Shown here: piece after piece, positions 2,496 to 16,769 of the stretch
Layout: each line of letters opens with the position of its first letter
Numbering within the stretch: the stretch's first letter is position 1
The notes under the pieces: generated by a model
Database searches by the model: none
What the model was told of the DNA's origin: nothing
What the model saw: only the letters and a program-made list of their open reading frames with translations
Program-made: the position numbers and the translations under genes
Assembly: GCA_043820815.1 (NCBI GenBank)
Contig: JBDRDJ010000028.1
Coordinates: 22,307-86,306 of the forward strand
From: Candidatus Omnitrophota bacterium
GTDB lineage: Bacteria > Omnitrophota > Gorgyraeia > Duberdicusellales > 4484-171
Length of the DNA: 64,000 bases
Reading direction: 5' to 3'

Positions 2496-2993
2496 ATGCC
2501 AGTAAAACAAGAACCAATAAATATCAAGATAAGAATTTCTAAACAGAAGCTGTATCTTTGTAAGAGCAAAAGGATGATTAAGCAATACTCAATATCAACA
2601 TCAAGATACGGCATTGGCAATAAGCTCAACAGCAATAAAACACCATTTGGCCTGCACAGAATTTACAGCAAAATCGGCAAAAATGCGTTGATAGGAGCTA
2701 TTTTTAAAAAGAGGCGCTTCAGGGGAAAATATTCCAAGATATATAAGAAGTCAGCTCCAGATAGAACTGATTTTATTACAACACGCATCATAAGGTTAGA
2801 AGGCTTAGAGAAGGGCATTAATAAGGGTATGGGCATTGATTCTTTAGAGAGGTGTATTTATATTCATGGCACCCCTAATGAAGCTTTAATCGGTAAGCCG
2901 GTATCTTGCGGATGCATAAGATTGAAAAACAAAGATATAATCGAGTTGTTCAATTTAGTAAAAAGAGGCAATTTAGTTAAAATTGAAAGGTAG
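2496..2993 (+). CDS. L,D-transpeptidase catalytic (YkuD) domain protein
   Basis: Active-site motif HGTPNEALIGKPVSCGCIRL (His ... Cys-x-Arg). No signal peptide is seen at the N-terminus. Confidence 0.75.
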   Translation: MPVKQEPINIKIRISKQKLYLCKSKRMIKQYSISTSRYGIGNKLNSNKTPFGLHRIYSKIGKNALIGAIFKKRRFRGKYSKIYKKSAPDRTDFITTRIIRLEGLEKGINKGMGIDSLERCIYIHGTPNEALIGKPVSCGCIRLKNKDIIELFNLVKRGNLVKIER

Positions 2994-3120
2994 ATGTGTA
3001 AGCAACGGGATTGGTTTTCGAATCTGATAATGATTTTTTTAACGGGAACCAGCTGATCATTTCTTCCTGCCGGCCTCAAAATAAACAATTAAAAAGGCGA
3101 TAATGCTGGAGATGTATTCT

Positions 3121-3221
3121 TGGACATTCCCCAAAATTAATATATTGTTTTTCATAACGAGTTTAACCATAAACAGTTAAGAAAAATAATATCTGAATTC
3201 CTGTATTTTGGGGAATGTCCA
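3121..3221. repeat. perfect 17-bp inverted repeat pair, part of a MITE-like repeat-dense region
   Basis: TGGACATTCCCCAAAAT (3121-3137) and its exact reverse complement (3205-3221) are separated by 67 nt. A third copy lies at 23273-23289. Confidence 0.6.
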
Positions 3222-3308
3222 TAATCTCAGTAATCTTTCCCCAATCTCAGTAATCAATTGGGAGTTTCTTAGATTTCAAAAATGGGGAAACTCCCGATGT
3301 ATTCTGTT

Positions 3309-3336
3309 TTACTTTCTACTTTAGATATGGTACAAT
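3309..3336 (+). promoter_or_regulatory. sigma-70-type promoter candidate for the sigma-54 activator gene
   Basis: TTACTT, 16-nt spacer, TGg-TACAAT (extended -10, 3328-3336). Confidence 0.4.
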
Positions 3337-3433
3337 ATTTTTTCTTTTTGGCTTAGGCAGCAAGAGAGCGATGAGCCACAGTCTTATTAGAGATGTCCGA
3401 TTTAAACCCTAACGCATTCCCCGCAATAAAGTT

Positions 3434-4813
3434 ATGGTAAGCGTCAATAAACAACCTGTTATTTTAGTTGTGGATGATGACCCTTCAGTTTTAGAGGCAT
3501 TCAAGGTTATTTTAGACGAGCAATTTAAGATTTTGACTGCTCAGAGCGGAAAGAGCGCATTGGATACGGTTTCTAAAGAACCGGTTGATCTGGTTTTCTT
3601 AGACATTGCCATGCCCGATATAGACGGCATGAAGATTCTGCGTACGATGAAGGAATTGGATGCTAATTTATCAATAATTATCGCAACCGCAACCGACAGC
3701 GCGAAAATGGCTGTTGAGGCAATGCGGCTGGGAGCCTGTAATTATATCACAAAGCCTTTTGACCCTGATGAAGTGGTAGCTGTGGCCCAGAAGGCCCTGG
3801 AACGGGAAGAACTGCTGAAAGAAGTTGCTTATTTTCGGTCTCAAAGAGAAGAAATAAAGTTTGATAATATTGTGGGCAAAAGCAAAAGCATGGAAGAGAT
3901 ATACGGCATTATCGAAAAAGTCGGCAAAAACGATACCACCATTATTATTACCGGCGAAAGCGGAACAGGAAAAGAATTAATCGCCCAAGCAATACACTGG
4001 AACGGCCTGAGGCAGCAGAAACCGTTTATTCCCGTTAATTGCGCAAGTATTCCTGAAAACTTGCTTGAAAGCGAATTTTTCGGCTACGAAAAAGGCGCTT
4101 TTACCGATGCCGCTTCTCAGAAATTAGGCATGCTGGAACTGGCTGACCAAGGCACGCTGTTTATGGATGAGATCTCAAGCCTCAAGTTAGATATGCAGGC
4201 AAAGCTTCTGCGCGCTTTGGAAGAGAAGGAAATTAGAAGGGTTGGCGGAACCAAGATAGTTAAGGTAGATGTACGCATTATCTGCGCTGCTAACGTTGAC
4301 TTAAAAGCTTTGGCACAGGAAGGAAAGTTTCGCTATGACCTATATTATCGCTTGAATGTCGTGCCTATACATTTGCCGTCACTTAGAGAACGCAGGGAGG
4401 ATATCCCTTTGCTGGTCGCGCATTTCTTAAGAAACTTTAACAAGGCGTTCAGAAAAGAGATAGAAGGGTTTACGGATGATTCTTTAGAGTACTTAATTAA
4501 TTATGATTGGCCGGGTAATATCCGGGAGCTTAAGAATGTTATTGAGCGTTTGGTTGCCTTAAAGGATAAAGGAGTTATTACATCTAAGGAACTGCCTTTT
4601 GATATTTTTATAAAAAATAAGCTGATAAAGAGCTTCCGGGCCGAAGGCGGGCTCAAAGAAGCACGCCGGGATTTCGAGAAACAATACATAGAAGCTGTGT
4701 TAGAAAGAGTCGGCGGCAATCAAATTAAAGCGTCTAAGATATTGAGTATTCACCGTAATGCACTTTTTAACAAGATAAAGAGTTTAGGGATAGGAGGGCG
4801 AAGATGCGGCTAA
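3434..4813 (+). CDS. sigma-54-dependent response regulator (NtrC family enhancer-binding protein)
   Basis: N-terminal receiver (VVDDDPS ... FLDIAMPDIDG). AAA+ domain with GESGTGKE Walker A and the GAFTDA sigma-54 contact motif. C-terminal Fis-type HTH (QIKASKILSIHRNALFNKI). Confidence 0.9.
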   Translation: MVSVNKQPVILVVDDDPSVLEAFKVILDEQFKILTAQSGKSALDTVSKEPVDLVFLDIAMPDIDGMKILRTMKELDANLSIIIATATDSAKMAVEAMRLGACNYITKPFDPDEVVAVAQKALEREELLKEVAYFRSQREEIKFDNIVGKSKSMEEIYGIIEKVGKNDTTIIITGESGTGKELIAQAIHWNGLRQQKPFIPVNCASIPENLLESEFFGYEKGAFTDAASQKLGMLELADQGTLFMDEISSLKLDMQAKLLRALEEKEIRRVGGTKIVKVDVRIICAANVDLKALAQEGKFRYDLYYRLNVVPIHLPSLRERREDIPLLVAHFLRNFNKAFRKEIEGFTDDSLEYLINYDWPGNIRELKNVIERLVALKDKGVITSKELPFDIFIKNKLIKSFRAEGGLKEARRDFEKQYIEAVLERVGGNQIKASKILSIHRNALFNKIKSLGIGGRRCG

Positions 4814-6651
4814 TCAGATTTATATCTTTTTTTGCATTGTTAGTCACTATAGCCGTTGGCGCAGAGGCGGCGGCTGGAGAAACCAGCACAATTGAATTAC
4901 AGCCTATAGTTATAACGCCAAGAAGAACACCTGTTGGGCTAAGCGCAACAACAGAGAACGTAATCGTAATCAATGAAGAAGAAATAAGCCGGCTGCCTGC
5001 AAGGGACTTAGGCGAAGTTTTGGGGTATACCGCAGGTGTTGATATTGATCCTCGCCAGGGATTTGGCAGGGCAACATCAATCAGTATCCAGGGCTCTGAC
5101 TCCCGCCATGTAAGGGTAATGATTGACGGCATACCTTTAAATAACCAGGCTTCCGGCGAGGTTGACCCTTCCCGCTACTCAATTGAGAACGCAAAAAGGA
5201 TAGAAGTTATTAAAGGGTCAGCTTCGAGTATTTGGGGTTCAAGCTTAGGCGGAGTGATTAATATTATTACCAAGGATACGGGAGATACTTTAATTCCCAA
5301 GGGCAATTACACAACCTCTTTTGCAGAATTCGGCACTAAGAAAGACACTCTTGACTTGTCGGGTAAATTAGGGCAATTGGGTTATTATGTTTTCGGGAGC
5401 TTGATGGAATCAGGGGGCAAGGATTCAAGGGATGATGTTATTGAGAAAAAAACATTCGGCAAGCTATCATACGATTTTAAGGATGCCGGCAAATTAACCG
5501 CTTCTTTCGGTTATAACAAAGCAGATGTAAACAGCGGTGTTTGGCCTGATGGAACCTGGTGGGGCCAGCCTTACCGCATACATTACGGCAAGGCCGGCTG
5601 GGAGGCTGAATTAGGCGCAACAGCCGTGAGCGCTGAATTAAAACATTCCCGTCAGGATATTATTACAGAAATTTACCTTGATGCCGCTGATCAAGAGCCG
5701 TTTTCTACGATTAAATCCAAAGATGCGCTTTATCAGCTAAGTTTAAATTCAACCACTCATATTGGAAAAGATGACCTATTAGTTTTAGGGTTCGATTCCG
5801 ATTGGGATAATTTAAAATCTACTTATCTTACCAAAGCAAAGGGTCTAAATGTACAGGCTCCTTATGCTAATTATGCGTTGAAATTAGAGCCATGGGATTT
5901 TAATTTTGGATTACGTTATGACCATACCAGTGAATTTGGAGATGAACTTAGCCCTTCTTTGGGTGCGATATACCATGTTAAAAGCATTCCCGATACTCTT
6001 GTGCGGGCAGGAGTTTCCCGGGCATTTAATGCTCCGCCTCTTCTTTGGAAGTACTATGACTTCAGCCTAAGCGGCTTGACTATTAACCCTGATATTACAC
6101 CTGAACGTGCCCGGGTGTATGAGCTTGGATTGGAAAGTATGCCGCTACCTGAATTATGGCTTAAGCTTTCTTTATACAGAGCGGATGTGTCTGATGCTAT
6201 CAGCAATGCCCAAAGCGGGAGCGGCCAGTGGTATAAAAAGAACTTTGAGAAGTTCCGGAGGCAAGGGGCAGAGTTACAGTTTAATGCCGGCCTTTTTGGC
6301 GGGTTAAGTTTATTTGGAGGCGGCGCTTTTAACGATATTGAAGATAGAGCTACAAGACAAACCGTAGAAGGCGGAGGTAAACCCCGCTATAGTTATGATT
6401 TAGGGCTGTCATACAACAGTGAAAACGGGCTGAATGTGTTAGTTCGCGGTTATTATAATTACTGGAACGAACCGGCATCAAGCGAGCCTAATGATAGAAA
6501 AATGCTTTGTGACATAAAGATTTCTCAAAAATTCAAAAACGCAGATTTTTTCTTAAATGTACACAATTTTACTAATAGCAAATACTGGAGAGATTATTAC
6601 TTTCCTGTTCCCCAGAGGTATTTTGAGGGAGGAGTCACTTTTAAATGGTAA
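4804..6651 (+). CDS. TonB-dependent outer-membrane receptor
   Basis: Signal peptide, TonB-box-like IELQPIVITP, plug-domain motifs (IEVIKGSASSIWGS), and a beta-barrel ending in an aromatic residue (VTFKW). The start overlaps the activator stop by 10 nt. Confidence 0.85.
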   Translation: MRLIRFISFFALLVTIAVGAEAAAGETSTIELQPIVITPRRTPVGLSATTENVIVINEEEISRLPARDLGEVLGYTAGVDIDPRQGFGRATSISIQGSDSRHVRVMIDGIPLNNQASGEVDPSRYSIENAKRIEVIKGSASSIWGSSLGGVINIITKDTGDTLIPKGNYTTSFAEFGTKKDTLDLSGKLGQLGYYVFGSLMESGGKDSRDDVIEKKTFGKLSYDFKDAGKLTASFGYNKADVNSGVWPDGTWWGQPYRIHYGKAGWEAELGATAVSAELKHSRQDIITEIYLDAADQEPFSTIKSKDALYQLSLNSTTHIGKDDLLVLGFDSDWDNLKSTYLTKAKGLNVQAPYANYALKLEPWDFNFGLRYDHTSEFGDELSPSLGAIYHVKSIPDTLVRAGVSRAFNAPPLLWKYYDFSLSGLTINPDITPERARVYELGLESMPLPELWLKLSLYRADVSDAISNAQSGSGQWYKKNFEKFRRQGAELQFNAGLFGGLSLFGGGAFNDIEDRATRQTVEGGGKPRYSYDLGLSYNSENGLNVLVRGYYNYWNEPASSEPNDRKMLCDIKISQKFKNADFFLNVHNFTNSKYWRDYYFPVPQRYFEGGVTFKW

Positions 6652-6690
6652 AAAGAGTGCACAATATAATGAATTGCACTCTTTTGTGTG
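6651..6690 (+). terminator. terminator hairpin after the TonB-dependent receptor
   Basis: AAAAGAGTGCA (6651-6661) pairs with TGCACTCTTTT (6675-6685), an 11-bp stem with a 13-nt loop. Confidence 0.55.
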
Positions 6691-6854
6691 CATAAAATCC
6701 GCCGCATAAAACCATCTGCGCAAGTTGTTTCGCAAATTGAAAAATAATAAATTAGTTTATTCATGCATCCGCATATCAATGATTGTCTTTGTTTTTACAG
6801 CCCGCCGCTTTAAAAGTTTCCCTAAAAAATTCCAAAATGCAAAAATGTAATTAA

Positions 6855-6870
6855 TGGCACGATACTTGCT
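6855..6870 (+). promoter_or_regulatory. sigma-54 (-24/-12) promoter
   Basis: TGGCACGATACTTGCT matches the consensus TGGCACG-N4-TTGCW at every defined position. It lies 20 nt upstream of the signal-peptide ATG at 6890. Confidence 0.6.
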
Positions 6871-6889
6871 TAATCAAAGATGTAACCGG

Positions 6890-8491
6890 ATGAACAAGAG
6901 AACGCTATTTATTTTATTAACCATTTTGCTTTTAGTTATGTTACTCGTTGGTATTAAAAAACGTTCGCATGTGCTCACTTCTTCTAATTTGTATGGCGGT
7001 ACTCTTGTATGGGGAGCGGTCAATAAGCCTACAATAATAAACCCGATTTTAACCACTCAGAGCATTTCTATGGGGGTTATTAATTTAATATTTAACGGCT
7101 TGGTTAGAATTAATTCAAAAGGGGAAATAGAGCCTGATTTGGCACAGTCTTGGGATATTTCCCAGGACGGCCTTGTGTATACCTTTCATTTAAGGGAAGG
7201 CATAAAGTTTCACGACGGCAGAGAGTGTACTGCTTATGATGTAAAATTTACTTATGATAAAATCGTTGATCCGGATATTAATTCGCCCTTTAAATCTTTT
7301 TACCAATTAGTCAGGGAATTTAAGGCGGTTGATAAATTAACTTTTCAGGCAGCCTTAAGAAAACCTTTGTTTTCTTTTATTTACAGGTTTACCAGAGAGA
7401 TAGTTCCTAAGCATATCCTGGAAAATAAGGATTTGAGCAGATGTGCATTTAATTATCATCCTATAGGAACAGGGCCGTTTAAGTTTAAAGAGTGGAAACA
7501 AGACGGCCGGATTGTCCTTGATTATAATCCTGATTATTACGAGGGAAGGCCGTATTTAGACAGGGTTATCGCTAAAACTTATACTGATTCCCGCAATCTC
7601 TGGGCGGCTCTTATGCGCGGCGAAGTGGATTTTGTGCTTTATATAGGGCGGCAAGATTATGAAATTGTAAGGGATGACCCGGCATTTAAAGCTTATAACT
7701 ATTTTTTTGATTTCTATTATACCTTAATTTACAACCTTAACGATCCCGTGCTGGCCGATAAAAGGGTAAGATACGCACTTGCTTATGGCATAGACAGAAA
7801 GGAGTTGATTGAGAAAGTGGCTTTCGGCTATGGTTTAGAATGTAACGGCCCTTTTTATCCGGATTCTTTAGGTTTTAATCCCGATGTTGAGCCTTTTAAA
7901 TATAGCCCCCAGCGCTCACGCCAGCTATTAGCCCAGGCAGGCTGGGAGGATACTGACGGTGATGGTATTTTGGGAAAAGAAGCAAAAGAGTTGGAGTTGA
8001 GCATTTTGGTTGACGAGAGAAATGACATCTACAAAAATATAATAATGGTTTTAAGGCAGCAGCTTCAGAGAATTGGAGTAAAGACACAAGTACAGCTATA
8101 CAACGACGACAGTGAACTTACCGATAAGTTTCTTGCCCAAAACAAGCCGCAGGCGCATTTAAAAATGCTTATGGCAGGGATGGACCCTGATCAGCAGGCG
8201 CCGCACGATTGGTGTTCCGAAATGCCCCGTGGCCTCGGTAAATTGTGGATATATAGAAACGATGAAGTAAACAGGCTTTTTATGACAGGGAAAGTCAGTC
8301 GTGATAAAGAACAACGGGATTTGATTTATCGAAGAATTCACCGCCTTATTTATGAAGACCAGCCGGCATGTTTTTTATATTTCCCATTTATTTTTCACGC
8401 AGTTTCCAATAAGTTTGAAAATACAGATGATTTCTTTACGGTGAATATGCCTTTTTATACAATAAAAGATTGGCGCCTTAAATCTAATTAA
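6890..8491 (+). CDS. periplasmic solute-binding protein, family 5 (OppA/NikA/DppA-like)
   Basis: The N-terminus MNKRTLFILLTILLLVMLLV is a signal or anchor sequence. Family-5 hallmarks follow (GGTLVWG ... PDLAQSWDISQDGLVYTFHLREGIKFHDG). The track start at 6854 falls inside the sigma-54 promoter, so I moved the start to the in-frame ATG at 6890. Confidence 0.8.
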   Translation: MNKRTLFILLTILLLVMLLVGIKKRSHVLTSSNLYGGTLVWGAVNKPTIINPILTTQSISMGVINLIFNGLVRINSKGEIEPDLAQSWDISQDGLVYTFHLREGIKFHDGRECTAYDVKFTYDKIVDPDINSPFKSFYQLVREFKAVDKLTFQAALRKPLFSFIYRFTREIVPKHILENKDLSRCAFNYHPIGTGPFKFKEWKQDGRIVLDYNPDYYEGRPYLDRVIAKTYTDSRNLWAALMRGEVDFVLYIGRQDYEIVRDDPAFKAYNYFFDFYYTLIYNLNDPVLADKRVRYALAYGIDRKELIEKVAFGYGLECNGPFYPDSLGFNPDVEPFKYSPQRSRQLLAQAGWEDTDGDGILGKEAKELELSILVDERNDIYKNIIMVLRQQLQRIGVKTQVQLYNDDSELTDKFLAQNKPQAHLKMLMAGMDPDQQAPHDWCSEMPRGLGKLWIYRNDEVNRLFMTGKVSRDKEQRDLIYRRIHRLIYEDQPACFLYFPFIFHAVSNKFENTDDFFTVNMPFYTIKDWRLKSN

Positions 8492-8509
8492 AGGAAGGAG
8501 GTGAGAAAG

Positions 8510-8608
8510 ATGAAAGTTATTAAAAAAGGCTCGGATAAGATTTTTAACGGTGTAGATCCCAAAGGCTGCTGCTGGCCGGCAGGGACTATCGGTGCACGCC
8601 CCTACTAA
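8510..8608 (+). CDS. 32-aa candidate RiPP precursor peptide (MKVIKKGSDKIFNGVDPKGCCWPAGTIGARPY)
   Basis: ATG 8510 is preceded by GGAGGTGA (8497-8504) with a 5-nt spacer, and TAA is at 8606-8608. It sits immediately upstream of the rSAM/SPASM gene. It is too short for the ORF track. Confidence 0.6.
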   Translation: MKVIKKGSDKIFNGVDPKGCCWPAGTIGARPY

Positions 8609-8762
8609 TGGTTGAGGGAGGGTAATTAAAATATCCTGAAAAAGAGATGTTTTGCAGTAAGTTTATGGGCGGCCGACCAGAACTTGCTGCAACCATAGTT
8701 GTAAAAGCCACCGATTTATCAACATCAGATAACGGATTGGATCATATTGTTAGGAGCGGGAA

Positions 8763-10127
8763 ATGAAACTGTCGAAATTCAATTTATTGGTTAAAGATTA
8801 TCCTGTCAAAGGCGAATACCTTTTGTTTAATACACGCACTCAGGCGTTGATTACCGTAACTAATAAATTTAAGGAGTTTTTAGACAGCCTTGAAGCCTCA
8901 AACGTTACGGTTTACGGTATGGCGATAAAAGAAAAAATAAATGCATTGAAAGAAAACGGAATTGTAGTTGAGGACGAAAAGGAAGACCAGGATAAATTAA
9001 GTGATTTTTTTCGGCAGCTAAAATATGAATCAAATGTCTTGCCTTTTGAGGCGACAATTCTAACCACTTACAATTGTAATTTTAAATGCGTGTATTGTTT
9101 TGAAGAATCGGTCAGGGATAATATATTCTTAGATATCAAGACCAGCGAGGCAATAATAAACTGGCTAAAGAGAAGAATTCAGCAGAGAGGCTATAAACGG
9201 ATTTATCTGGTTTATTACGGAGGAGAGCCCTTGCTTAATGTCAAGCCGGTTTACGATATATCCTGGCATATGCAGGCATGGGCTGATAAGAATGGTGTTG
9301 AATTCGGTTTCGGTATAATTACCAACGGAAGCCTTGTAAATCCGGAGTTAATTGATAAATTGTTAACCGTAGGCTTAAAAGAAATCCGTGTCAGTTTAGA
9401 CGGCGACAGAAATGCACACAATAAGAAAAGGCCGTTTTCTGATGGACGGCCTACCTTTGACCTTATTGTTAATAATATAAAAAGAGTTATGGGAAAAGTC
9501 AATGTGGGAATTTCGGGGAATTTTGACCGCAAGAACTACAAGAGTATCTACAAACTTTTAGATTATTTAGAAGAACAGGGAATCTTGCGTAAATTACACA
9601 GGATTAATTTTGCACCCTTGACTCCCCGGTTCGGGCCAAAGAATAATCCCGGAGCAGTTGAATTAAAAGAATGCTTTTCTTTTGTGGGAAAAGAGGGATT
9701 ATTTAAGGAAGTGACAGCTATTACAAAAGAGCTAATGCGGCGCAGGCTGACATTGACTACCGGTTTATCGGTTAATATCTGCCCTTTGATTATGCAGGAC
9801 GGAGGTATTACCATTGACCCCGGGGGCGTAATTTACAAATGTAACGCTCTGGTAGGTTATCGGGAATTTTCCATCGGTAATGTCGCCGATGAGGGGTTTA
9901 ACGAAAAGTTTAGTGAATTCTTAAATATTGACGCCTGGAATAAATGCCCACGTGATTGCCCTTATATTCCCATGTGCCAGGGGGGATGCAGATTTTTTTC
10001 CTATTTAGAGAATAAGAATTTTTGTGCGTTATCCTGTAAAAGGGATTATTTTGATAAGATTACTCCCGAATTGATTAAGCTGGAGTACGATAAACTTACA
10101 AACGACTATCAAAGCAGTTTGCAATGA
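8763..10127 (+). CDS. radical SAM/SPASM-domain peptide-modifying enzyme with N-terminal RRE-like domain
   Basis: CNFKCVYC is the CX3CX2C radical SAM motif. The C-terminal SPASM signature is present (CPLIMQDGGITIDPGGVIYKC ... CPRDCPYIPMCQGGC ... C). About 95 aa precede the rSAM core, typical of a PqqD-like recognition element. Confidence 0.9.
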   Translation: MKLSKFNLLVKDYPVKGEYLLFNTRTQALITVTNKFKEFLDSLEASNVTVYGMAIKEKINALKENGIVVEDEKEDQDKLSDFFRQLKYESNVLPFEATILTTYNCNFKCVYCFEESVRDNIFLDIKTSEAIINWLKRRIQQRGYKRIYLVYYGGEPLLNVKPVYDISWHMQAWADKNGVEFGFGIITNGSLVNPELIDKLLTVGLKEIRVSLDGDRNAHNKKRPFSDGRPTFDLIVNNIKRVMGKVNVGISGNFDRKNYKSIYKLLDYLEEQGILRKLHRINFAPLTPRFGPKNNPGAVELKECFSFVGKEGLFKEVTAITKELMRRRLTLTTGLSVNICPLIMQDGGITIDPGGVIYKCNALVGYREFSIGNVADEGFNEKFSEFLNIDAWNKCPRDCPYIPMCQGGCRFFSYLENKNFCALSCKRDYFDKITPELIKLEYDKLTNDYQSSLQ

Positions 10128-11875
10128 AGAGAGCAAGAGAGCTTTTATCTATTTTACGGCCGCATAGGAAAAAGATCATTTTCGCCGGCATATCGATTCT
10201 TGCTGTCAACTTAACGGGGTTGGCTTTTCCCTGGGGTATTAAGATTATCATTGATGAAGTTCTGGTTAAAAAAGATTTCTTTTTGCTAAATAGCTTGGCA
10301 GGGGCACTTGTTCTGATTTTCTTGATACAGTTCTATTGCGGATTTATGCGCGAATACTTAGTTTCTTCTGTGGGTGAAAATGTAGTTTGTGAGTTGCGTA
10401 ACAGGCTCTACTGGCACATAGAGAGATTATCGGTGAAATATATAGAGGATACGCCTATAGGTAAGATTATATCGGGAGTTATCGGCGATGTTGAGAGTAT
10501 ACGGAATTTCCTGTTTGGCGGGCTTATAGATTTTATTTACTCTTTCCTTAACGTATTTTTCGTCCTTATCATCTTGCTGTTTCTGGATTGGAAGCTAACC
10601 CTGGTTTCTTTAATATTTTTGCCCGCGTTCGGGCTCACCTTCTTTAAGCTTACCCCCCGCCTGCAGAAGAAGTTTGGGGCAGTGAGGGAAAAATACGCGG
10701 AGTTAACCGCACACTTAAACGAAGTATGTATTGGTATCCGCGTTGTTTGCGGTTTTGGCAAAGAAAGATACGAGGCAGACAGGTTTAATTCTACTCAGAG
10801 CAAAATTCTCAAAAACTCTATGGCAGGCCACAGGCTGACGATAGGGTTATGGATGGGGTCAGAGTTAGTCAGTTCTTTAGGGCTTGTTACCATTATATGG
10901 TTTGGAACCCGGGCCGTATTTTCCGGGCGTATAACCCCGGGGACATTGATGGCGTTTTATTCCTATACAGGAATGCTTTTTTTCCCCGTAATTAAGATGA
11001 CGATTATTAACAATTTTTATCAAGAAGCTGCTGTTGCAATGGAGCGGATTGATAGAATTTTAGCCGAAGAGCCGGCAGTAAAAGAATCTCTAAATCCCGT
11101 TAAGATTAATAAGGTAAAAGGAAATGTAATATTTGACGGGGTAAGTTTCAGCTACGATGGAAAAAGGGAAGTTCTCTCTGGAATTGACATCGGCGTAAAA
11201 GCATCCCAAACCATAGCCCTAGTGGGTAAAAGCGGCGCCGGTAAAACCACCATGATAAATTTGCTACTTAGATTTTACGATCCCGATAAAGGAGGAATTT
11301 TTATTGACGGATACAACATCTGCGATTTGGATTTGAATTCGTACCGTTCTAGTATTGCTATGGTTCTTCAGGATGATTACCTCTTTAACTTAAGCGTTAG
11401 AGAGAACATTCTCTATGGCAAGCCGCAGGCTTCTTTTGATGAAGTTGTCAGAGCCGCCTGTTTAGCAAACGCTCATCAGTTTATTACTGAATTAGCCGAT
11501 GGTTACGATACAGAGATAGGCGAAGGAGGGGTTAAACTTTCTTTCGGGCAAAGACAAAGGATTTCTATCTCCCGGGCAATAATAAGAGACCCGGCCATTT
11601 TAATTCTGGATGAGGCGACATCGTGCGTAGATTCAGAAACTGAACGCCTTATCATCGAAGGAGCTTATAAAAATGTGATATGCGGCCGTACCACGTTCAT
11701 AATTGCCCATAGGCTTTCAGCAATAACGTATGCTGATAGAATTATTTTTATCGAAGGCGGCAGAATAATTGAGGAGGGTGCTCACCAGCACCTTTTAGAT
11801 AAAAAAGGCCGATATTGGAAAATGTGGACAGAACAAACCCGATATAGCTTTACATCGAAGGTGCCGGCTGCATAA
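10124..11875 (+). CDS. ABC exporter, fused permease/ATPase (MsbA/type I exporter fold)
   Basis: A six-helix TMD is followed by an NBD with GKSGAGKTT (Walker A), LSFGQRQR (signature) and ILILDEATS (Walker B). An ATGA overlap with the rSAM stop suggests translational coupling. There is no N-terminal C39 peptidase domain. Confidence 0.9.
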   Translation: MKRARELLSILRPHRKKIIFAGISILAVNLTGLAFPWGIKIIIDEVLVKKDFFLLNSLAGALVLIFLIQFYCGFMREYLVSSVGENVVCELRNRLYWHIERLSVKYIEDTPIGKIISGVIGDVESIRNFLFGGLIDFIYSFLNVFFVLIILLFLDWKLTLVSLIFLPAFGLTFFKLTPRLQKKFGAVREKYAELTAHLNEVCIGIRVVCGFGKERYEADRFNSTQSKILKNSMAGHRLTIGLWMGSELVSSLGLVTIIWFGTRAVFSGRITPGTLMAFYSYTGMLFFPVIKMTIINNFYQEAAVAMERIDRILAEEPAVKESLNPVKINKVKGNVIFDGVSFSYDGKREVLSGIDIGVKASQTIALVGKSGAGKTTMINLLLRFYDPDKGGIFIDGYNICDLDLNSYRSSIAMVLQDDYLFNLSVRENILYGKPQASFDEVVRAACLANAHQFITELADGYDTEIGEGGVKLSFGQRQRISISRAIIRDPAILILDEATSCVDSETERLIIEGAYKNVICGRTTFIIAHRLSAITYADRIIFIEGGRIIEEGAHQHLLDKKGRYWKMWTEQTRYSFTSKVPAA

Positions 11876-11897
11876 CTTTTTTAATGGAGGAATCGCC

Positions 11898-12428
11898 ATG
11901 GTATTTAAGAATCTGAACATTTTAGTTATTGATGACAGTATTTCAGTAAGGATTTCAATGGCCGAAGAATTAGCGATGCTCGGCTATCAGGTGTATACGG
12001 CTGCAAGCAGGGAAGAAACAGAGAAAATTCTCGAAAATCATATCGTTGATATTGTCTTTCTTGATTTAAAGCTGCCCGGCGTTACAGGGCTTGAATATCT
12101 GGAGCAAATTAGGCGCAGAGAAGAAAACATTGTAGTAATTATAATGACTGCTTATGAATCCATGCCAACAGCTGTTGAGGCTATTGAAAAAGGCGCTCAT
12201 GAGTATATCATAAAACCAATAAGCCCGGGGCATCTTGAACTGGTGATGAAACAGGCGTTGATGCGCTTTTGCCTTGAGCAGGAAAGAGATATGGCTAACG
12301 ATAAGAGGATGGACGTAATAAAGAGGTTTAACAGTGACCTGAAAGACGCGGAAGCACTTAAGCAGGCACTAAAAGCCCAGGTGAACAGCCTTCTTGGGGA
12401 GTTAGGCAGGCCGCCCAAATATAAATGA
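11898..12428 (+). CDS. response regulator, receiver domain with short helical C-terminal tail
   Basis: ILVIDDS ... FLDLKLPGVTG ... YIIKP receiver motifs. RBS GGAGG lies upstream, 22 nt after the ABC exporter stop. Confidence 0.85.
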   Translation: MVFKNLNILVIDDSISVRISMAEELAMLGYQVYTAASREETEKILENHIVDIVFLDLKLPGVTGLEYLEQIRRREENIVVIIMTAYESMPTAVEAIEKGAHEYIIKPISPGHLELVMKQALMRFCLEQERDMANDKRMDVIKRFNSDLKDAEALKQALKAQVNSLLGELGRPPKYK

Positions 12429-12496
12429 CACGATGAGCCTTCCTGCGGAATAATACCGGCGGCCAAAAATAATGGATTAAACAATAAATTATTATT

Positions 12497-14290
12497 ATGA
12501 CGGAAAGGTCTAAAAGGAAATTCAAACGGTTTTTACTAAATTTATTTTACCACAGGCTGTGGGTGCAGATTGCGGCAATTCTTCTTGCGTTAGTTACTGT
12601 TCCGGTGATTACCTTAGGGACGTTACTCATCAAAACATCAGAAGAGGCAGTGCGCAGTTCAGTGCTTAACAATCATAAGGAGATAGTAAAGAGAGCCTCG
12701 GGAGAGATTGAGCTCTTTGCCAGAGGAGCAAAAAGTGTTTTGTATGCTGCGGCAGCGATTATGGGAGAAGTTTCTTCTGCTGAATGGAAACAGGAGACAG
12801 TGCTGGTAGAATTAGTTTTGAACCAGCCGGTTTTTATAAGAGTTTCTTCTGTGGATTTATCCGGTAAAGAAATAGCCAGTTCTGAACTGGGAAGAGAGTC
12901 AAAACGCTATTATTCTAATGAGGTGCTTGAAGAGATTCAGAAGGGAAAAGTTTATATTTCTCAGGTTAAATTCCTCGATAATAATAATCCTTATGTAACC
13001 ATGAGTGCCCCGGTAAAGAAAGACGGCCAAATCGCAGGGGGGATAATTGCTGATGTAAACTTGCGGGGGATATGGGATATTGTGGATAATATCCAGATAG
13101 GCCATACCGGAAAAGCTTTTTTAGTAACAGATAAGGGCGTATTAATTGCCCACCATGATAAGAAACGGGTTCTTAAAAAAGAGAACTTTAGCAGTTATAA
13201 AGATGTCCAATTGGTTTTATCTTCAGAAACCGGCGCAATTGAATTAGAAGATGCATCGAAAGAAAGATGGATTAGTTCTTACGCTCCTATTTCTGATTTA
13301 AGCTGGGCTATTGTATTAAGGCAGAAGCAGGACGAAGCTTATTTATTTTCTAAGGTGATGAGGATGCAGGCGTGGGTAATTATAGGCATAAGTGAATTGC
13401 TGGCGGTTGTTGTTAGTATTTTTATGGCGCGGTTTTTGGTAAGGCCGGTTAAAACTTTAGCCTCGAGAATGAAGAGTGTAGCCGCCGGCGACTTAGACCA
13501 TAAAATCGGCTCAAGAAGGCGAGATGAAATCGGGGAATTAATAAGGTCTTTTAACGATATGATTGAGAAGTTAAAAAGAGCCAGTGCGCGCGAGCGGCTC
13601 TCTGCAATCGGAGAAGCAGCTGCCTGGATAGCACATGAGCTTAAGAACTCTTTAGTTTCCATAAAGACTTTCATCCAGTTGTTTCCTCGAAAATATAAAG
13701 AAAAGAATTTTGTGGATAAGTTTAGCAAGCTGATCCCTGAAGAAATTAAGCGCTGGGAGAATATGCTTAAAGAGCTGTCTGACTTTTCATACCATTCTGA
13801 CCTGCGCAGGCAAAACGTTGATGTGAAGGATTTATTAGATAACTTATTGCAGATAATGGGGGGAAGGCTTCTTGAGAAACGAATAAGCGTTGATTACAAC
13901 ACCGAGGGTGATAATTTTATTATATGGGCTGATAGTGAAAGGTTAAAGCAGGTCTTTATGAATTTAATTATTAATGCCGTAAACGCGATGGCGGACGGCG
14001 GTGCGCTCAGGATATCTTTACGCTCAATAGAAGGCAGCGGCCAGCTTGCAGACAGCTCTATAGAAGCAAGAGTCCAGGATACAGGATGCGGGATACCCAT
14101 GGAAGAACTGGATAAAATATTTGAACCGTTCTATACTGCGAATAAAGGCGGGATGGGCTTAGGGCTTTCAATAAGCCAAAGGATTGTTGAACAGCACGGC
14201 GGGAAGATTAAGGCAGAAAGTAAACTAAATACCGGTTCTGTCTTTACCGTAATATTGCCAAAAGATCCGTTATTGTTAAGGGCTGTGTAA
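12497..14290 (+). CDS. sensor histidine kinase with large extracytoplasmic (Cache-like) domain, HAMP, HisKA, HATPase_c
   Basis: Two TM segments flank a loop of about 270 aa. HAMP region (RPVKTLASRMKSVAAGDLD), H-box HELKNSL, N-box NLIINAVNA, G-boxes DTGCGI and GGMGLGL. Confidence 0.85.
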   Translation: MTERSKRKFKRFLLNLFYHRLWVQIAAILLALVTVPVITLGTLLIKTSEEAVRSSVLNNHKEIVKRASGEIELFARGAKSVLYAAAAIMGEVSSAEWKQETVLVELVLNQPVFIRVSSVDLSGKEIASSELGRESKRYYSNEVLEEIQKGKVYISQVKFLDNNNPYVTMSAPVKKDGQIAGGIIADVNLRGIWDIVDNIQIGHTGKAFLVTDKGVLIAHHDKKRVLKKENFSSYKDVQLVLSSETGAIELEDASKERWISSYAPISDLSWAIVLRQKQDEAYLFSKVMRMQAWVIIGISELLAVVVSIFMARFLVRPVKTLASRMKSVAAGDLDHKIGSRRRDEIGELIRSFNDMIEKLKRASARERLSAIGEAAAWIAHELKNSLVSIKTFIQLFPRKYKEKNFVDKFSKLIPEEIKRWENMLKELSDFSYHSDLRRQNVDVKDLLDNLLQIMGGRLLEKRISVDYNTEGDNFIIWADSERLKQVFMNLIINAVNAMADGGALRISLRSIEGSGQLADSSIEARVQDTGCGIPMEELDKIFEPFYTANKGGMGLGLSISQRIVEQHGGKIKAESKLNTGSVFTVILPKDPLLLRAV

Positions 14291-14309
14291 TTCATAAAGC
14301 GGGGGATGT

Positions 14310-14957
14310 ATGAGCAAGAAAATTCTGATAGTTGATGACCACAGCATTATGCGTGAGGGCCTGCGTGCTTTGCTTGAAGAGGTACAGGATTTCAAAGTAA
14401 TCGGAGAGGCGGAAAACGGGCGTGTGGCATTGCGAATGGTACAGGAGTTTTTACCTGATGTAGTGATTATTGACATTGCAATGCCTCATTTAAACGGAAT
14501 CGAAGCAACACGCCAGATTATTTCCAAGTTTCCCGCTGTTAAGGTCATTATGCTTTCAATGCAGTCCGGCAGGCAGTTTGTGGAAGAGGCGCTTAAGGCC
14601 GGCGCTTCAGGTTATCTCTTGAAAGATAACATTTTTAATGAGTTAATCCTTGCCCTTCATACGGTAACTGAAGGCAGAATATATCTATGTCCGGAAATAG
14701 CCAAAGTGGTAGTTAAAAACCTTGTGCACCGGCTAAAAAACGATGTCCCTTCACAAATTAATATACTTACACCGCGGGAACGCGAAGTGCTTCAGCTCTT
14801 AGCAGAAGGTAAATCGACTAAACAGATTGCCCGCTGTCTGGGTGTGAGCATAAAGACCATTGAAACCCACCGTCAACAGGTTATGCGTAAATTAGACATC
14901 TATAGTATAGCCGAGCTTACAAAATTCGCTATCCGTGAGGGCATAACATCTCTTTGA
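14310..14957 (+). CDS. NarL/LuxR-family response regulator
   Basis: Receiver (ILIVDDH ... IIDIAMPHLNG) plus a C-terminal LuxR HTH (LTPREREVLQLLAEGKSTKQIARCLGVSIKTIETHR). Confidence 0.9.
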   Translation: MSKKILIVDDHSIMREGLRALLEEVQDFKVIGEAENGRVALRMVQEFLPDVVIIDIAMPHLNGIEATRQIISKFPAVKVIMLSMQSGRQFVEEALKAGASGYLLKDNIFNELILALHTVTEGRIYLCPEIAKVVVKNLVHRLKNDVPSQINILTPREREVLQLLAEGKSTKQIARCLGVSIKTIETHRQQVMRKLDIYSIAELTKFAIREGITSL

Positions 14958-15091
14958 AGTTTTCTTAGAAATTCTAAAAACCTTTCTCTTTGCAAATCAG
15001 GTATTTATAACCATAGTATCAGGGTTTCCCCGATTGTTTTTTATGTTGACATGGGATATCATAACGTAAATCTTAGCAAGGACATTAGATT

Positions 15092-16294
15092 ATGGATATG
15101 TATGAAGGTTTTATAGAGAACATTGATGTCTTTTTCTTTAAGCTGGATAGCAAGGGGCGCTGGGTTTATTTAAACAGATTATGCACTGATATTTTTGGCT
15201 GGCCAAAAGAAGAAATGGCAGGAAAGAAATTTATTGATTATGTATCCGGCGGCGCCGGCCTTAAGTTTTCCTCACTGATTAAAAATATACTCAATACTAA
15301 GAATCCACAATGCCGCCTTGAAGCGGAAATCAGAACCAAAACCGGCATAAAGAAGATTTTTGGTTTTAGTCTATACCCGGACAAAGATACTGGCGGCAAA
15401 GCTGCCGGCATACTGGGAATAGGCAGAGATATAACCAGGAGGAAACGGGCTGAGCAAAGAGAGAAAGAACTCTTAAGCTTAGAGAAAAAAAGGTCAGCAC
15501 AGCTTAAAAAAGCTTATAATGATTTAAGAAAAACTCAAAACCTGCTGTTTCAAGCCGAGAAGATGGCAGCTGTTGGGCAATTGGTCAGCGGCATAGCCCA
15601 CGAAGTAAAAAATCCCTTATGTCTAATCGTTCAAGGCGTAAATTTGTTAGAGAACGAAATAGCCATGGATAATACAAGCCAGCGTGAGACACTGTCTCTC
15701 ATTAAAGAAGCTGCATACAGAATCGATATTGTTGCCCGCGGCCTGCTTAATTTTGCAAAGCCGGCCCCTTTAGAACTTACACGCTGTGAGATAAACAAAG
15801 TTATCAAGGCTGCAGTTGAATTGATGAAGAGGAATTTGTTCGTTAAGAATATAGAAATAACCCAGAATTTATCAGCAGGGCTTCCTTTAGCTTTGATTGA
15901 TGCTAATCAGATGGAGCAGGTTTTTATAAATATTATTTTGAATTCTTCGCAATCTATGCCTGAAGGAGGAGAGATAGTAATCAAAACATACACGGGAAAT
16001 TATGGAGTTTTGCAATCCGGCACAGAAAAACAATCATTAAATTCTCGCGCGGCCGGCAATACTGTTATAATTTGTGAGGTTATAGATACAGGAATTGGTA
16101 TACCCAAAAATTTTCTAAGCAAGGTATTTGAGCCGTTCTTTAGCACTAAACCATCGGGAGAAGGCACGGGTTTAGGCTTGGCTATTACAAAGTCAATATT
16201 GAAAAAGCACAAAGGAACAATAAATATTGAAAGCGAAGAAGGAAAAGGCACAAAAGTTACCATAGCTTTGCCTTTACCTAAGGAAAACGGTTAG
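15092..16294 (+). CDS. cytoplasmic PAS-domain sensor histidine kinase
   Basis: N-terminal PAS-like region, H-box GIAHEVKNPL, and HATPase motifs (DTGIGI, GTGLGLAI). No TM segments are seen. Confidence 0.85.
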   Translation: MDMYEGFIENIDVFFFKLDSKGRWVYLNRLCTDIFGWPKEEMAGKKFIDYVSGGAGLKFSSLIKNILNTKNPQCRLEAEIRTKTGIKKIFGFSLYPDKDTGGKAAGILGIGRDITRRKRAEQREKELLSLEKKRSAQLKKAYNDLRKTQNLLFQAEKMAAVGQLVSGIAHEVKNPLCLIVQGVNLLENEIAMDNTSQRETLSLIKEAAYRIDIVARGLLNFAKPAPLELTRCEINKVIKAAVELMKRNLFVKNIEITQNLSAGLPLALIDANQMEQVFINIILNSSQSMPEGGEIVIKTYTGNYGVLQSGTEKQSLNSRAAGNTVIICEVIDTGIGIPKNFLSKVFEPFFSTKPSGEGTGLGLAITKSILKKHKGTINIESEEGKGTKVTIALPLPKENG

Positions 16295-16355
16295 GTGAGT
16301 GTGTCTAAACTTAAATAATTTTGACAATACGCAACATTACACCGGGGGAGATAAT

Positions 16356-16769
16356 ATGAATAGGAAGAAAATTTTGATAGCTGATGACGATATGGTTTTT
16401 TTGAAGTTTTTAGAGCAGAGTTTAGCAGCTCAAGGGTATGCTGTAATCAAAGCCGTTAACGGCAGAGAAGCTTTTCTTCTTGCCAAGAGCCGGCATCCGG
16501 ATTTAGTTGTACTTGATATTTCTATGCCGGTTATGGACGACTACACTGTATCGGAAATATTTAGCCAAGATTCTGATTTAGAAAACATTCCGATTATTTT
16601 TCTGACGGCCATGGTATCAGAACAAGAGGAACAAGCAATGGGAAAAGAGATAGGGGGCTGTTGTATTATGGCAAAGTCTAAGGATACTGCCCGGTTATTA
16701 TCAAAAATAAAAGAAATGTTGGCCCCAGGGATTTCTATCCAGAATAAAGATAACGGCGTCAGCTCTTAA
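16356..16769 (+). CDS. single-domain response regulator
   Basis: MNRKKILIADDD ... VLDISMPVMD receiver motifs. ATG 16356 has GGGGGAG upstream. The track start at 16299 adds a 19-aa extension that I consider unlikely. Confidence 0.8.
   Translation: MNRKKILIADDDMVFLKFLEQSLAAQGYAVIKAVNGREAFLLAKSRHPDLVVLDISMPVMDDYTVSEIFSQDSDLENIPIIFLTAMVSEQEEQAMGKEIGGCCIMAKSKDTARLLSKIKEMLAPGISIQNKDNGVSS

Follow-up and report, generated by a model that had tools for sequence, protein, structure and literature searches.

Enteric promoters of the glnAp2 type are NtrC-dependent sigma-54 promoters, with a GG at -24, a GC at -12 and the consensus TGGCAC-N5-TTGC. Here we describe an element of this type at positions 6855-6870 of a 64-kb stretch of DNA (the whole of which we call the window) from a metagenome-assembled Candidatus Omnitrophota genome. 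From comparative sequence evidence, we consider it highly probable that the element is a functional, enhancer-dependent sigma-54 (RpoN) promoter that drives an operon for a periplasmic binding protein and a small peptide, and that it works together with an NtrC-type activator encoded at 3434-4813. The likeness to NtrC-dependent glnAp2 extends to the GG/GC consensus, to an activator that combines a receiver, an AAA+ domain and a Fis-type helix-turn-helix (HTH) domain, and to a predicted palindromic TGCAC...GTGCA enhancer some 100-170 bp upstream, which is orientation-independent and sometimes present in multiple copies. The differences are that the half-sites are spaced by N6 here and by N5 in NtrC sites, that the contact loop of the activator here reads GAFTDA, that no site resembling that of integration host factor (IHF) was found, and that the start codon lies 17-21 nt from the -12 GC, which would leave a leader of ~5-9 nt. 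The host is also an uncultured member of the Omnitrophota, and the target is a peptide-maturation cluster instead of nitrogen assimilation genes.

Three other described systems are close to parts of the locus. The closest solved structures to the activator are those of Aquifex aeolicus NtrC4 (4l4u, E 8.4e-103) and NtrC1 (1ny5, E 1.1e-98), both of which match over the full length; this is a likeness by sequence alone, as both differ from the activator here in their targets, in the binding site and in the contact loop, which is GAFTDA here. A natural GAFTDA loop is also found in DVU2106 of Desulfovibrio vulgaris Hildenborough (PMC4641369), although that protein is a single-component regulator of cell-division genes and the activator described here is a two-component response regulator from another phylum. 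Finally, the radical-SAM peptide systems of the geopeptide maturase family TIGR04280 and of CteB, a thioether-forming enzyme, resemble the cluster in their maturase and in having a short Cys-containing precursor gene before it and an ABC transporter gene after it. The match to TIGR04280 scores below the cutoff of 400, however, and the precursor has no NCBIfam model. Beyond what those systems contain, the cluster here adds a TonB receptor, a binding protein without a permease and a dCache kinase.

Taken together, the predicted promoter is a canonical enhancer-dependent sigma-54 promoter in every testable feature, and its mechanism would be the textbook one and no new kind of system. Less ordinary are the near-leaderless geometry, the GAFTDA loop, the clean joint loss of promoter and activator parts in some relatives, the presence of rpoN beside the cluster in some genomes, the uncharacterised precursor family and an RNA hairpin with an invariant loop. 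The predicted promoter and enhancer, the activator and the probable target operon form a testable module in a phylum with almost no genetics.

The -24/-12 element and its conservation

Read base by base, positions 6855-6870 (T6855 to T6870, + strand) are TGGCACGATACTTGCT, with the GG at 6856-6857 and the GC at 6868-6869. All 12 defined positions of TGGCACG-N4-TTGCW agree, as a preliminary description of the locus had stated, and GG and GC are exactly 10 nt apart. This is the sole match with 0 or 1 mismatch on both strands of the window, where chance would give 0.03 exact matches and 0.39 at up to 1 mismatch; matches with 2 mismatches are at chance level (8 found, 6.95 expected). The two next-best sites with an intact GG and GC, each matching at 10/12 positions, were rejected, as they lie antisense inside long open reading frames (ORFs). 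The element itself lies in the 238-nt intergenic gap ahead of the binding-protein gene and is co-oriented with that gene, and no sigma-70-like site was found on the + strand of this gap. As 3 of 100 shuffled windows also contain an exact match, the match is by itself suggestive, and the decisive evidence is comparative.

Orthologous loci, which we refer to by L numbers, were gathered in two ways, from contigs encoding orthologs and from a metagenome scan that used an alignment of an ortholog-specific N-terminal block (alignment A2). When an alignment of the full-length binding protein was run against genome contigs, it gave just paralogs with 25-37% identity (L001-L080), because the back-translated patterns are generic to the SBP_bac_5 family. 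Loci were scanned for a GG and a GC 10 nt apart. In 21 distinct loci from Omnitrophota, a -24/-12 element directly precedes the orthologous gene for the binding protein, and the binding proteins of these loci are only 39-65% identical (39% for the outlier L135 and 49-65% for the rest). The variants read TGGCAC, TGGCAT or TGGTAT, then N5, then TTGCT (or TTGCA), and a column-by-column comparison of 19 of the loci shows TGG, A and TTGC to be invariant. Within the 16-nt element, mean pairwise identity among these 19 loci (alignment A3) is 80%, as against 30% in the 60 nt that precede it. In 1.03 Mb of related DNA, both strands included, 37 sites score at least 10/12, and 19 of them sit at exactly the promoter position.

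A more distant clade (L128, L133 and L137) has a binding protein of 36-38% identity and the gene order maturase, binding protein, kinase. Here, TGGCAC-N5-TTGC is found 45-60 nt upstream of the maturase gene (at 4481 in L128, 2829 in L133 and 496 in L137), followed by a normal leader with a Shine-Dalgarno sequence, and the upstream repeat is a different one, resembling TGGCCAA...TTGGCCA. The activator of L133 has the canonical GAFTGA loop.

Some loci (L095, L099, L102, L108, L111 and L114) also share a partly conserved block that lies between predicted enhancer and promoter. It consists of an A/T run, CCGACG(A/G) and then ATAATTTAT, and occupies columns ~85-135 of alignment A3, or ~-60 to -25 with respect to the promoter. 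In the window, CCCGCCGC at 6800-6812, followed by semi-phased A-tracts, stands at the position of the block. The block could be the binding site of a second factor, or a bend.

The NtrC-type activator and the upstream palindrome

Exactly one enhancer-binding activator of this kind is encoded in the window, alongside one credible promoter. The gene (3434-4813, + strand) encodes a receiver, a Sigma54_activat domain (PF00158, E 6.8e-69) and an HTH_8 domain, and its translation contains the Walker A motif GESGTGKE, the Walker B motif FMDE and the receiver aspartate in LD57IAMP. The next gene on the same strand encodes a TonB-dependent outer-membrane receptor with plug and beta-barrel domains (4804-6651) and overlaps the activator gene by 10 nt; both the co-orientation and the overlap had been noted before, and the Pfam domains confirm the family. 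The sigma-54 contact loop of the activator is GAFTDA in the window and in 10/10 orthologs examined, where the canonical sequence is GAFTGA. For DVU2106, which shares the variant, target operons have been listed, and GAFTDA has been classed as a variant with which activation would still be possible (PMC4641369). We judge it unlikely that GAFTDA disables the activator, because the variant is present in all the orthologs examined and in a known regulator with listed target operons.

The co-occurrence of promoter and activator was assessed by tblastn of the window proteins against all loci. The promoter is present in each of the 12 distinct loci where a full-length activator gene precedes the receptor gene (the window, L081, L085, L088, L093, L095, L099, L103, L108, L111, L139 and L140). 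Conversely, the 12 loci that show both the promoter and the stretch ahead of the receptor gene all encode an ortholog of the activator. Six others (L098, L104, L118, L119, L120 and L123) have a receiver-only gene in the activator position, 42-55% identical to the receiver of the activator, and four (L084, L086, L112 and L117) have no activator gene before the receptor gene; no promoter element was found in any of these ten. In the promoter-less loci, the gap between the receptor and binding-protein genes is just ~10-45 nt. The receiver-only genes encode ~135 amino acids (4511-4897 in L104 and 4023-4430 in L123), and look like an activator stripped of its AAA+ and DNA-binding parts, which would have been lost along with promoter and enhancer. 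In a neighbour-joining tree of the binding proteins, the promoter-bearing state is basal and spread, and the promoter-less loci fall in at least three nested clades. This suggests that the promoter and the AAA+ and DNA-binding domains of the activator were repeatedly lost together, and such repeated joint loss of promoter, enhancer and activator parts would be unusually clean evidence for a pairing of regulator and target.

A candidate for the site bound by the activator lies just past the receptor gene. The window's best match to TGCACA-N6-TGTGCA, with 1 mismatch, is the palindrome TGCACT-CTTTTG-TGTGCA at 6675-6692, the centre of which is ~172 bp upstream of the -24 GG. An extra half-site, GTGCACA, is found at 6657-6663, 17 nt upstream of the left arm of the palindrome. 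The same layout recurs in most of the related promoter-bearing loci, where TGCACA, 11-12 nt and then TGCACA-N6-TGTGCA follow directly past the stop codon of the receptor gene. With up to 2 mismatches allowed, TGCACA-N6-TGTGCA occurs 20 times in 5.1 kb of promoter-upstream DNA and 10 times in ~508 kb elsewhere, an enrichment of about 200-fold upstream of the related promoters. The distance from the centre of the palindrome to the -24 element downstream of it ranges from 76 to 173 bp across loci. Variants alter both arms symmetrically (TGCCCA/TGGGCA, CGCACA/TGTGCG), and the orientation is reversed in L100 and L135. Symmetric variation without regard to orientation is what would be expected of an enhancer for a dimeric protein with a Fis-type HTH. 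The established NtrC site is TGCACC-N5-GGTGCA, which the window palindrome resembles. We predict that the palindrome at 6675-6692 is the upstream activator sequence of the adjacent activator. The region earlier suggested for activator binding, 6690-6855, would miss this site.

The outlier L135 has five perfect tandem copies of TGCACA-N6-TGTGCA at 6586-6687, with a period of 21 bp, 190-270 bp upstream of its promoter. Two further perfect copies are seen at 4353-4390, upstream of the TonB receptor gene. In this locus, the gene of the activator, which has GSFTSA as its contact loop, lies downstream of that of the kinase.

In three relatives, a full-length rpoN gene divergently adjoins the orthologous activator gene (481-1851 on the - strand in L095, 8383-9792 in L139 and 9914-11263 in L140). 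The three sigma-54 domains (activator-interacting, core-binding and DNA-binding) were found by direct Pfam search in L095 and among precomputed Pfam hits in L139 and L140. Some genomes thus have the gene for the sigma factor in physical linkage with the cluster. A search for rpoN returned more than 100 homologs, ten of which are named Omnitrophota or Omnitrophica by NCBI. The window has a YkuD-domain gene and an RRM-domain gene at the corresponding position. The product of the latter gene (1535-1867, 1.6 kb upstream of the activator gene) is a small protein that carries an RNA recognition motif of the eukaryotic type (RRM_1, E 1.6e-21).

It is possible, though unlikely, that the promoter is real but that read-through from the genes of the activator and the receptor accounts for most of the transcription of the operon, or that the activator of the promoter is encoded elsewhere. 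Read-through is suggested by the promoter-less relatives, where the binding-protein gene begins 10-45 nt past the receptor gene and must be co-transcribed with it. In the window, moreover, the hairpin that follows the receptor gene (~6651-6690) is a weak terminator candidate, and a scan for terminators did not report it on the + strand. As for another activator, in L083, which has both promoter and enhancer, no activator gene is seen within 8 kb, and so the activator can be encoded elsewhere. On the other side, the distribution of the promoter, which is present with every full-length activator gene and absent from the receiver-only and activator-less loci listed above, ties the two together. 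The palindrome varies symmetrically, as expected for the site of a cognate dimeric binder, and the window holds just one such activator. Read-through and a dedicated inducible promoter are, in any case, not mutually exclusive.

We regard it as distinctly improbable that 6651-6692 is the terminator of the receptor gene instead of an enhancer, with the real site of the activator lying elsewhere. The preliminary description had placed a terminator hairpin at 6651-6685, and a hairpin does exist. The region ~6651-6690 folds as RNA at -19.3 kcal/mol (z -3.1), with an 11-bp stem and a 13-nt loop followed by UUUUGUGUG, directly past the stop codon, and the symmetric changes in the palindrome arms would keep an RNA stem as well. 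The stem, however, is formed by half-site 1 (6658-6663) pairing with half-site 2 (6675-6680), with a third half-site at 6687-6692. This pairing is not conserved, and other loci have direct repeats instead. What is conserved is the palindrome TGCACA-N6-TGTGCA, without a following U-run and in either orientation (L100 and L135), and not a stem with a U-run. The palindrome also resembles the NtrC site, and the five tandem copies in L135, given their 21-bp period, indicate a protein-binding array and not a terminator. A secondary role of the hairpin as a terminator could coexist with the predicted enhancer role.

Start codon, short leader and proposed mechanism

A mechanical ORF track starts the binding-protein gene at ATG 6854, which overlaps the promoter element. 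An in-frame ATG at 6890 opens MNKRTLFILLTILLLVMLLVG, and the signal peptide begins at this Met1. The binding protein is identical to NCBI MFH1772499.1, and the length of that entry, 533 amino acids, places the NCBI start at 6890. The upstream in-frame start codon is not conserved in orthologs, and in five loci (L093, L095, L102, L103 and L111) there is none upstream of the element. Translation from ATG 6854 was rejected on these grounds, and the true start of the gene is ATG 6890. Gene callers repeatedly start this gene at an ATG within its own promoter, as we see in the ORF track and in the JGI gene calls for L081 and L083. The preliminary description had made both points, namely the overlap of the track start with the element and a signal peptide that begins at 6890, and the NCBI annotation agrees with it.

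The weakest alternative, that the match arose by chance or is coding sequence translated from ATG 6854, with TGGCACG...TTGCT encoding Met-Ala-Arg-Tyr-Leu-Leu (MARYLLNQRCNR), is extremely improbable, as it can draw on the open frame from ATG 6854, on the same start in the two JGI calls and on the exact match in 3/100 shuffled windows, but has to contend with the NCBI start and signal peptide at 6890, with the five loci that lack an upstream in-frame start and still conserve the DNA of the element and not its flanks, and with the presence of the motif in orthologs and its co-occurrence with the activator gene.

In the window, 21 nt separate the C of the -12 GC from the start codon, and 18 of the 21 loci, the window included, have a distance of 17-21 nt. 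In L085 it is 27 nt and the start is GTG, and in L092 and L100 it is ~47 nt, probably to a TTG start preceded by a Shine-Dalgarno sequence. One of the 18, L097, has ACG at ~1454-1456 where others have ATG (...GGTGAG-ATG-CG...). In this locus, 48 nt lie between the -12 GC and the next in-frame ATG, and a start there would cut the signal peptide short; the ACG may be a non-canonical start or else result from a sequencing error.

The sigma-54 holoenzyme starts transcription ~12 nt past the C of the -12 GC. From this geometry and the 17-21 nt spacing, a leader of ~5-9 nt is expected across loci. For the window, the same fixed geometry predicts a transcription start at ~6879-6881 and a leader within 6879-6889 on the + strand, of ~9-11 nt if a purine at 6879-6880 is used. 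No Shine-Dalgarno sequence was found before ATG 6890, though neighbouring genes carry strong ones; in some orthologs, GGTGAG or GAGAGGA directly abuts the ATG. The leader had been described as very short and unusual, and the short distance is in fact conserved across the family and is no quirk of the window genome. The conserved spacing implies that sigma-54 transcripts would start ~5-9 nt before the AUG, which raises a question about translation for the phylum.

A mechanism can be proposed from these features. Sigma-54 RNA polymerase would bind the GG at 6856-6857 and the GC at 6868-6869 as a closed complex, unable to open the DNA alone. The activator, presumably switched on by phosphorylation of its receiver at Asp57 (as judged from the sequence pattern), would bind TGCACT-N6-TGTGCA at 6675-6692 and the half-site at 6658-6663, ~170 bp upstream. 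It would then form an AAA+ ring, reach the polymerase by DNA looping and open the promoter through ATP hydrolysis. Transcription would begin near 6879-6881, so that ATG 6890 would be preceded by a leader of just ~9-11 nt that lacks a Shine-Dalgarno sequence. The transcript would encode the binding protein, a 32-residue precursor peptide, a radical S-adenosylmethionine (SAM) maturase and an ABC transporter, and very probably also a receiver protein and a dCache histidine kinase. This kinase may be the phosphodonor of the activator.

The original proposal, a sigma-54 promoter inside a mis-called ORF start and paired with an activator encoded 2 kb upstream, is thus supported by the conservation of the element, by its co-occurrence with the activator gene, by the palindrome and by the rpoN genes of relatives. 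Several points weigh against it. The whole of the support is comparative sequence evidence, the transcription start is a predicted one, and the thresholds for scoring motif matches were our own choice. A leader of ~5-11 nt without a Shine-Dalgarno sequence leaves translation of the first gene unexplained, as strong ones are used elsewhere. A search for RpoN boxes found none in the 64-kb window, and the rpoN genes seen beside an activator gene are those of relatives. No site of the IHF bending type (WATCAR-N4-TTR) was found between enhancer and promoter in 19 loci. The neighbour-joining tree, which bears on the repeated losses, has no support values, and L083 retains promoter and enhancer with no activator gene nearby. 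Finally, the contact loop is not the canonical GAFTGA, and for Dickeya VfmH, which also has GAFTDA, no interaction with sigma-54 was detected, with the effect of the loop change left undecided (PMC10714721).

The peptide operon and a possible signalling circuit

The first gene of the predicted transcription unit (6890-8491, + strand, like all genes described below) encodes a periplasmic solute-binding protein of the SBP_bac_5 family, similar to NikA and Opp proteins (Pfam E 5.2e-86). It is followed by the gene for the precursor peptide (8510-8608), which has a strong Shine-Dalgarno sequence and encodes 32 amino acids, MKVIKKGSDKIFNGVDPKGCCWPAGTIGARPY. Precursors of ~31 amino acids with the motif CC[FWY]P-x-G are encoded at the same place in at least 25 loci (L081-L123), and their pattern can be written as M-E-[IV]-I-[RK]-K-G-S-D...G-P-L-x-C-C-[FWY]-P-x-G-[TS]-x-G-x-R. 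No NCBIfam match to the precursor was found at E up to 0.01. The radical-SAM/SPASM peptide maturase is encoded at 8763-10127. Its best NCBIfam family is the geopeptide maturase TIGR04280, at 282.5 bits, which is below the cutoff of 400 and thus places the protein outside the family, and its closest solved structure is CteB (5wgg, E 8.6e-16). The maturase gene overlaps that of the ABC transporter (10124-11875), which has fused membrane and ATPase domains and an exporter fold. Searches of the literature on sigma-54 in Omnitrophota, on geopeptide and on leaderless sigma-54 transcripts returned nothing directly relevant, and no paper on this system was found.

The genes had been described as tightly packed through 11875, but the packing is uneven, with a 154-nt spacer between the end of the peptide gene at 8608 and the start of the radical-SAM gene at 8763. 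Within this spacer, at 8653-8691, is a conserved RNA hairpin, the loop of which (GCGGCCGA, at 8669-8676) is identical in 17/17 aligned loci, with compensatory changes in 10 of the 12 stem pairs. A covariance model finds one sense-strand copy per locus of the sigma-54 type, including L139 and L140, which were not used in building the model. No U-tail follows the hairpin, and an Rfam search of window 2900-16500 (E up to 1) gave no match. By analogy with other operons for peptide maturation, the hairpin could adjust how much precursor mRNA there is relative to enzyme mRNA. The hairpins that promoter-less loci have after the precursor gene are unrelated to it.

Beyond the transporter gene are those of a receiver-only protein (11898-12428) and a histidine kinase with dCache and HAMP domains (12497-14290), both of which are, by synteny, probable distal genes of the unit. 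In most sufficiently long loci, the order binding protein, precursor, maturase, ABC transporter and dCache kinase is kept on one strand with short gaps, and the TonB receptor gene adjoins the binding-protein gene in most related loci. In nearly all of them, the dCache kinase is encoded past the exporter gene and on its strand. An operon of binding-protein, peptide, radical-SAM and exporter genes through at least 11875 had been proposed; that set is supported, and the unit probably continues to the end of the dCache kinase gene (14290) and perhaps to that of the next regulator (14957).

A wider role for the cluster can be considered tentatively, though we hold it to be rather doubtful: a self-inducing peptide circuit, widespread in Omnitrophota and controlled at the promoter at 6855-6870. 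In such a circuit, a radical-SAM-modified peptide with the CC[FWY]P-x-G motif would be exported by the ABC transporter and would re-enter across the outer membrane via the TonB-dependent receptor. The permease-less periplasmic binding protein would bind the peptide and report to the dCache histidine kinase, which would phosphorylate the GAFTDA activator, and this would fire the sigma-54 promoter. The promoter would in turn drive, as one set, the genes for sensor, precursor, maturase, exporter and kinase, with the near-leaderless first gene and the invariant-loop hairpin setting the relative amounts of the products. A variant in which the peptide chelates metal and its uptake serves as a signal is equally open.

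The binding-protein and kinase genes are linked in L087 and in the distant clade, where they are directly adjacent; this favours the two as a sensing pair, and is consistent with the circuit but no proof of it. In L087 (8001-11976), the genes of the dCache kinase and of a receiver come straight after that of the binding protein, and there are no precursor, maturase or transporter genes, so that only a sensor is encoded. In most loci, a gene for a NarL-type or AraC-type regulator follows that of the kinase, and the wiring of the kinase may therefore branch. In the window, a NarL-type response regulator is encoded downstream of the dCache kinase gene, at 14310-14957, and a second histidine kinase at 15092-16294.

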